Of a stretch of 64,000 nucleotides of DNA, positions 52,667 to 53,063 are shown in pieces. The DNA lies in NCBI GenBank assembly GCA_041688145.1, contig JBDNIV010000013.1:1285-65284 (forward strand). The letters are read 5' to 3'. Source of the stretch: Chlamydiia bacterium (GTDB lineage Bacteria; Chlamydiota; Chlamydiia; Chlamydiales; JAAKFQ01). Each line of letters opens with the position of its first letter. Within the stretch, counting starts at the first letter, position 1. The notes beneath the pieces were generated by a model. It saw nothing but the letters and a program-made list of their open reading frames with translations, ran no database searches and was not told the DNA's origin. Both the position numbers and the translations under genes were made by a program.

Positions 52667-53063
52667 ATGTCATTAGGATCAATCGCAAAAGCTGCTGTAA
52701 TTCCAGCAGTTATTTTAGGTGCCACATATAAACTTTCATTATTTAAGCGTGTCTCTAACGATTCAGGTTTAGGTTATTTAGTAGCGAATGCAGCTGCCAC
52801 TTTTGGCATCATTTAAGCGTGTCTCTAACGATTCAGGTTTAGGTTATTTAGTAGCGAATGCAGCTGCCACTTTTGGCATCAATAGCGCGGTAGAACTTGC
52901 TTTAAAGGGTCGTGTAGGTTTGCCTGCTACATCAAATTTAGTAAGAGGTCTAACTTTTGTAACACAGCTTGCATTGATCTTCTTTATTATTCCTCAAATA
53001 GCTAGATCTCAGGGGCAAAGTGAATTCGATGTGATTGGTTATACTAAAACTGGAAGGTATTAA
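52667..53063 (+). pseudogene. Frameshifted paralog of the membrane domain of 51904-52530 (108 aa if the duplication is collapsed)
   Basis: AAGGAG SD and ATG 52667; stop at 52814-52816 caused by the 70-bp duplication; removing one copy restores a continuous ORF. Confidence 0.8.
52741..52880 (+). repeat. Perfect 70-bp tandem duplication (52741-52810 and 52811-52880)
   Basis: ATTTAAGCGTGTCTCTAACG...GCCACTTTTGGCATC present twice, identical. Confidence 0.97.

Follow-up and report, generated by a model that had tools for sequence, protein, structure and literature searches.

Between the gene for a putative host-ER tether and nrdB, the draft genome of an uncultured environmental chlamydia carries a small gene whose reading frame is interrupted by a perfect tandem duplication. 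The question raised by this locus is whether the gene is switched on and off, has just been lost, or is intact and wrongly assembled. We examined it within the window, which is the whole stretch of 64,000 nt that was analysed. The locus probably holds a real, recent and in principle reversible loss-of-function allele of a conserved orphan membrane-protein gene, produced by a sporadic 70-bp duplication. The bacterium is the sole member of its genus, with one other genus in the family, and its nearest NrdB relatives are from environmental Chlamydiota MAGs (75-80% identity).

A 70-nt tandem duplication in a small gene

The locus comprises the following features, in coordinates of the window:

51904..52530, + strand: FFAT-family protein gene (208 aa), putative host-ER tether with a three-helix membrane domain and an acidic tail; upstream of the small gene
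52544..52572, + strand: promoter-like site upstream of the small gene; TTGCCT and TAAAAT at a spacing of 17 nt, the -10 being preceded by TG
52655..52660, + strand: Shine-Dalgarno sequence AAGGAG, 6 nt before ATG 52667
52667..52816, + strand: truncated 49-aa frame with the true start; it shares the N-terminus MSLGSIAK with the intact orthologue P0002
52741..52810, + strand: first copy of the repeated 70 nt, spanning roughly codons 25-48, with loop 1 and the first half of helix 2
52811..52880, + strand: second copy of the repeated 70 nt, without any difference from the first
52812..53063, + strand: rest of the gene in the original frame, now off-frame with the start; 83 codons and a stop
53078..53129, no strand assigned: hairpin resembling a bidirectional terminator, AAAAAGCTGCTT / AAGCAGCTTTTT, where the small gene and nrdB converge

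Direct reading and an exact string test showed that nucleotides 52741-52810 and 52811-52880 are identical and arranged head to tail. Together with a repeat search and with TRF, which reports 52737-52881 with period 70, 2.1 copies and 98% matches, they confirm the perfect 70-bp duplication that the first-pass annotation had placed at 52741-52880. The periodicity reaches a shared A at 52881, giving a perfect periodic stretch of 141 nt. On the left side CAT repeats at 52737-39 and 52807-09, and the unit boundaries are fixed because T52740 differs from C52810. The copies meet between 52810 and 52811, reading GGCATC/ATTTAAGC, with a junction ambiguity of 1 nt (the A at 52881); the microhomology at the junction is thus a single base, within an imperfect CAT-N-A match. 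A scan of the whole genome (1,275,035 bases in 51 contigs) turned up no further perfect tandem duplication whose unit exceeds 23 nt, and being alone of its kind the feature is not due to chance or to a systematic effect of the assembly. Perfect tandem arrays with units of 21-23 nt, one of them of 125+ nt, do occur on contigs C38 (14109), C22 (1-130), C13 (1524), C46 (5845) and C6 (8166) of the assembly, G000. The ends of C22 and C38 overlap by 128 nt inside a short-period array, and one repeat-rich gene is probably split over both contigs.

Since 70 = 3x23+1, the duplication causes a +1 frameshift and a premature stop: the ORF that starts at ATG 52667 ends as ...TFGI-I-stop at TAA 52814-16, after 49 aa, which bears out the truncation previously read from a duplication whose length is not divisible by 3. 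From 52812 onwards the original frame stays open up to its stop codon (53061-63), within a 91-aa ORF (52788-53063), and this remainder holds a conserved core, NSAVELALKGRVGLPATSN, that is identical at the protein level in P0002 while synonymous sites differ. The one-copy gene comes to 25 + 83 = 108 codons, the length also given by the first-pass annotation; the number is obtained by counting, the one-copy form being represented by its two pieces (codons 1-48 and 26-108) and by the intact orthologues. The three hydrophobic or helical segments are seen in both pieces and in the orthologues.

A split gene that still works would require both a 49-aa fragment and a re-initiated 91-aa fragment to be made and to assemble in the membrane, a scheme that we regard as extremely improbable. 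Helix 1 and half of helix 2 would be on the 49-aa piece, and helices 2 and 3 on the 91-aa piece starting at ATG 52788. The geometry would allow it, in that this ATG sits 26 nt before the premature stop and returns to the original frame after eight foreign residues, and the two fragments overlap in helix 2. However, there is no Shine-Dalgarno sequence at a usable distance before 52788 (TAGGTTATTTAGTAGCGA-ATG), which makes re-initiation there unlikely, and no relative has a split form. We infer a loss of function, and either the 49-aa or a re-initiated 91-aa fragment could keep some activity.

Assembly evidence for the duplication

The genome is a draft of 1.275 Mb in 51 contigs, 92% complete, and an artefact of assembly or library, or a wrong copy number (truly one copy, with an intact gene, or more than two), therefore had to be weighed. 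Exactly 141 nt are shared by the two contig ends in each of five pairs, at unresolved forks, which indicates an assembly at k = 141; such overlaps would also allow several of the 51 contigs to be joined. The 141-nt periodic stretch equals this largest k of the assembler, a coincidence for which we have no explanation and for which no mechanism acting on one-copy reads was found. Against an artefact, a de Bruijn assembler is unable to make the copy-copy junction word from one-copy reads, and the 1.275 Mb contain no other such duplication. Contig C28, which carries the window, is unbroken through the array despite k = 141; three or more copies would fork the k = 141 graph and break this contig, so that its continuity fits exactly two copies. 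A systematic joining artefact was also considered and rejected, given that there is no second 70-nt duplication and that contig ends with the 141-nt overlap were left unmerged.

Indirect support for the junction at the k-mer level comes from the end of one contig in an independent k = 31 assembly. Logan contig L020 (SRR9199117) shows 100% identity to the window along 1947 nt; it covers the left flank and stops 30 nt into the unit, at precisely 52770. In a 31-mer graph the word 52741-52771 has T52740 as its sole predecessor unless the unit also follows some other base, in which case the left-flank unitig ends at 52770; the stop of L020 at this predicted fork base thus argues against misassembly. 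A plain SNP bubble behind the end of L020 was rejected, because the assembler would have popped it, or else the contig would show an additional break some 30 nt upstream. Misassembly, allowed for in the first-pass annotation, is accordingly weakened by the end of L020, by the uniqueness of the duplication in the genome and by the continuity of C28, and we consider an artefact or a wrong copy number unlikely.

Contigs of the same species from other datasets are virtually identical to the window, and they may derive from one population or study and not be independent. Only the window's own contig spans the array, and none of the datasets yielded a one-copy allele of this species. Look-ups of exact products (the 91-aa ORF, the 49-aa ORF and the predicted right-flank partials of 69, 70 and 47 aa) gave no match, nor did a scan of JGI metagenomes with a 26-mer from inside the unit. 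With the family pattern, a scan of JGI metagenomes returned only contig L027, which belongs to the same species but begins just 14 nt short of the unit's end and so says nothing about the array. In L027 (JGI Ga0105055, 325-1412) nrdB is split by an indel into two overlapping ORFs, probably by a low-coverage assembly error; the gene is intact in the window and in contigs L025 and L026. L025 and L027 both end at window position 54761, hinting at a graph fork inside nrdA.

Orthologues, control signals and distribution of the small gene

Two relatives have uninterrupted copies of the small gene. P0002 (107 aa, Logan contig L023) shows 59% identity to the 83-residue piece used as search query and contains, within one ORF, both the N-terminus MSLGSIAK of the window and the core NSAVELALKGRVGLPATSN, whose 19 residues are identical in the two proteins despite the synonymous differences. 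The second, P0006 (143 aa), is encoded on the 25-kb JGI contig L024, in which the gene order is that of the window: M16 peptidase, OEP, HlyD-like protein, MFS, the FFAT-family protein P0005, P0006, nrdB and nrdA. P0006 lies between the FFAT-family gene and nrdB, as the small gene does in the window. There is no tandem repeat within either orthologous gene. These two intact orthologues, one of them syntenic, indicate that the one-copy state is ancestral.

In the window as in L024, the FFAT-family and small genes are direct neighbours with the same orientation. The gene upstream of P0002 in L023 runs off the contig, and the comparison was limited to its tail; it probably belongs to the same FFAT family.

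The signals around the small gene are also shared. The -35 and extended -10 blocks of the promoter-like site align in the relatives, as TTGCAT...TGGAAGAAT in L023 and TTGTCA...TGATATAAC in L024; the Shine-Dalgarno region, GGAGAYTCATATG, is invariant across the three species, and the same terminator-like hairpin is found 3′ of the orthologue in L024. Among the three members dN/dS lies at about 0.21-0.63, and dS is close to saturation. When the window is compared with L024, identity drops from 92% for NrdB and 84% for the MFS pump to 54% for the FFAT-family protein and about 42% for the small protein; judging from these alignments both of the latter evolve fast, and yet the core of the small gene stays fixed. 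The conserved promoter, Shine-Dalgarno sequence and terminator, together with dN/dS, point to a real, constrained gene that was recently inactivated.

The family itself is tiny. Among 40 relatives within the order neither the small nor the FFAT-family gene was found, GTDB species genomes gave no match to the small family when scanned, and the only other genome of the same taxonomic family has a different gene beside nrdB. A profile search of 1.84 billion proteins with the small family recovered the family itself and one further protein, P0007, rejected as a spurious repeat protein. Neither the small nor the FFAT-family proteins had a match above the curated threshold among curated families (Pfam, NCBIfam, PDB). 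The small family thus appears to be a lineage-specific orphan with three known members, limited to a few closely related uncultured chlamydiae, and the duplication draws attention to it as the companion of an FFAT-family membrane protein.

Origin and reversibility of the duplication

The identity of the two copies and the undecayed frame downstream indicate that the event is recent, in agreement with the first-pass annotation. The relatives contain no prior repeat, the microhomology is 1 nt and folding of the single strand is no more stable than that of shuffled sequences (z = -0.16), a combination that is the signature of sporadic slippage or unequal exchange; hairpin-promoted slippage was rejected on the same folding score. 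Likewise, TRF found only the 70-nt unit in the gene and the orthologues have no repeat tract, so there is no sign of a hypermutable tract of short repeats. A plausible course of events would begin with a sporadic 70-bp tandem duplication joined at one shared base, by replication slippage or by unequal exchange between sister strands. The resulting +1 frameshift would leave an allele that is null or severely truncated. One copy could later be lost precisely, by RecA-dependent or slippage deletion between the 70-nt direct repeats, and the gene would be restored.

Reversion is therefore possible in principle, because direct 70-nt repeats can be lost precisely and the genome encodes RecA; this part of the earlier proposal stands on mechanistic grounds, and no one-copy allele of the species was seen. 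The same proposal went further, to an on/off switch, and there the data give no support: the relatives show neither a repeat nor a predisposing structure at the site. A frameshifting tandem duplication is by itself an ordinary mutation, and nothing marks this site as a dedicated switch.

Reversible phase variation would nonetheless have the population mix one-copy ON and two-copy OFF cells, tuning the amount of a small partner of the tether-like neighbour. The best parallel is the pneumococcal type 3 capsule gene cap3A, for which tandem-duplication phase variation was described (Waite et al., 2001), according to a later summary (PMC11163986). In both genes a perfect head-to-tail duplication within the ORF, not a multiple of 3, turns the gene off, and loss of one copy restores it in cap3A, as summarised there, and would restore it here. 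In addition, RecA is present, the gene is otherwise constrained, so that a reversible OFF state would be cheaper than permanent loss, and the pairing with the FFAT-family gene has been kept in three species (in L023 probably). Nevertheless, for cap3A the same summary reports ON and OFF variants, observed reversion and many independent duplications, whereas the chlamydial locus shows one event only, with a two-copy consensus in the assembly, and no ON allele of the species was seen. The relatives without a repeat, the 1-nt microhomology and the z of -0.16 further give no sign of a forward rate above that of random duplication. Phase variation is thus improbable. The locus resembles the contingency loci of simple sequence repeats in that repeat copy number causes the frameshift, but it differs from them in having no pre-existing short tract and a 70-nt unit present in two copies only.

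The explanation that we favour, and that we hold to be probably correct, is the fresh pseudogenisation that had been offered as the alternative to a switch, that is, a recent frameshift of a real gene. Provided that the duplication is real, the locus shows an obligate intracellular bacterium at the first step of losing a gene. Chlamydial membrane and virulence genes are known to be lost by frameshift or by rearrangement between direct repeats, as with CT135 of C. trachomatis (PMC4514472), a case that is similar in that a non-essential, fast-evolving gene was lost through slippage or repeat-mediated events. Cases of the CT135 type are, however, deletions and homopolymer frameshifts arising in laboratory passage, whereas a 70-bp duplication is found here, in an uncultured lineage and in an unrelated family.

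The neighbouring FFAT-family gene

The membrane domain of the FFAT-family protein (window 51904-52233) has three members, namely the window protein, P0005 and a paralogue on contig C32. P0005 is the only relative of the window protein outside its genome (54% identity). The C32 paralogue (L019 781-1941, - strand; contig C32 of G000) has 386 aa and is 52% identical over residues 1-149; its tail consists of three coiled-coil repeats of about 88 aa, and it has neither an acidic FFAT-like end nor a small-gene neighbour. The tail of the upstream gene in L023 resembles these coiled-coil repeats (E = 0.005), a likeness that makes the tails look modular. In three species the acidic tails show an acidic tract followed by F-x-[ST]-[AP]: SEEEFFSAPSTP in the window (52360-52410), DDERFETPTS and DDDPFRSAQ in P0005 (L024 6001-6693), and EGEFHTPVDF in the partial gene upstream of P0002 (L023 190-250). 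As the rest of the tails is unalignable, the FFAT-like core is the conserved element.

According to the first-pass annotation, the small protein was a tail-less paralogue of this neighbour, aligned by eye in several blocks. These blocks do recur, in a collinear alignment of about 78 columns, and K8, A-[FI]-P13 and F-V-x-Q are common to all members of both families in the joint alignment. Both families also have three predicted helices in about 105 residues, besides their genomic linkage: H8-45, H48-78 and H85-108 in the FFAT-domain model (pLDDT 78), and H3-29, H44-66 and H74-102, with loops of 14 and 7 residues, in the AlphaFold model of P0006, which is of low confidence (pLDDT 47). Statistically, the relationship fell short of significance. 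BLASTP of the small family against the FFAT protein was not significant (E = 1.8-9.5), hmmsearch in both directions over all 10,201 ORFs of the genome gave no cross-hits between the two families, and no FFAT-family protein appeared among the 1.84 billion proteins searched with the small-family profile. Profile alignment of the two families with hhalign returned P = 0.045 and a probability of 1.2%; 13 of 400 column shuffles scored as well (P about 0.03), and among 385 TM-rich ORFs the FFAT protein ranked 3rd and its C32 paralogue 64th. A fold search with the neighbour's membrane domain found no structural relative in the PDB (E > 1). Distant paralogy of the two membrane domains is thus plausible though not demonstrated, and we put it at roughly even odds from the alignments and models at hand.

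The small protein can also be compared with the Inc proteins, which include the FFAT-bearing ER tether IncV (PMC9286742, PMC6083021). It resembles them in being small, lineage-restricted and fast-evolving, in its closely spaced hydrophobic helices, and in being encoded in a genome with a type III secretion system, although the gene for SctV/FHIPEP shows only that this route exists; as in IncV, the neighbouring FFAT-family protein has an acidic tail with an FFAT-like core. In contrast, no sequence or fold relation to any known Inc was found, and with a first helix that begins at residue 5-8 there is hardly space for the N-terminal secretion signal of a classical Inc. Moreover, Inc proteins have a bilobed hydrophobic domain of two helices, as opposed to the three hydrophobic or helical segments of the small protein. 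To go by these sequence features, Inc-type localisation is plausible, with a non-classical architecture.

Nothing in the data supports the role of an antagonist of the tether, as once suggested for the small protein. A more elaborate version, in which a toggled tail-less paralogue would dilute or cap an FFAT-type tether in the vacuole membrane and so let the population hedge between strong and weak ER contact with the eukaryotic host, is very doubtful. The main value of the locus is as a pointer to a conserved gene pair around a candidate ER tether, for which either intact orthologue, P0002 or P0006, would be a natural co-expression partner.

Finally, a T-rich stretch with TTGCCTT, a candidate -35, precedes both the FFAT-family gene and the small gene (window 51815-51850 and 52544-52572), and could reflect a shared promoter type or be the trace of an old tandem gene duplication.
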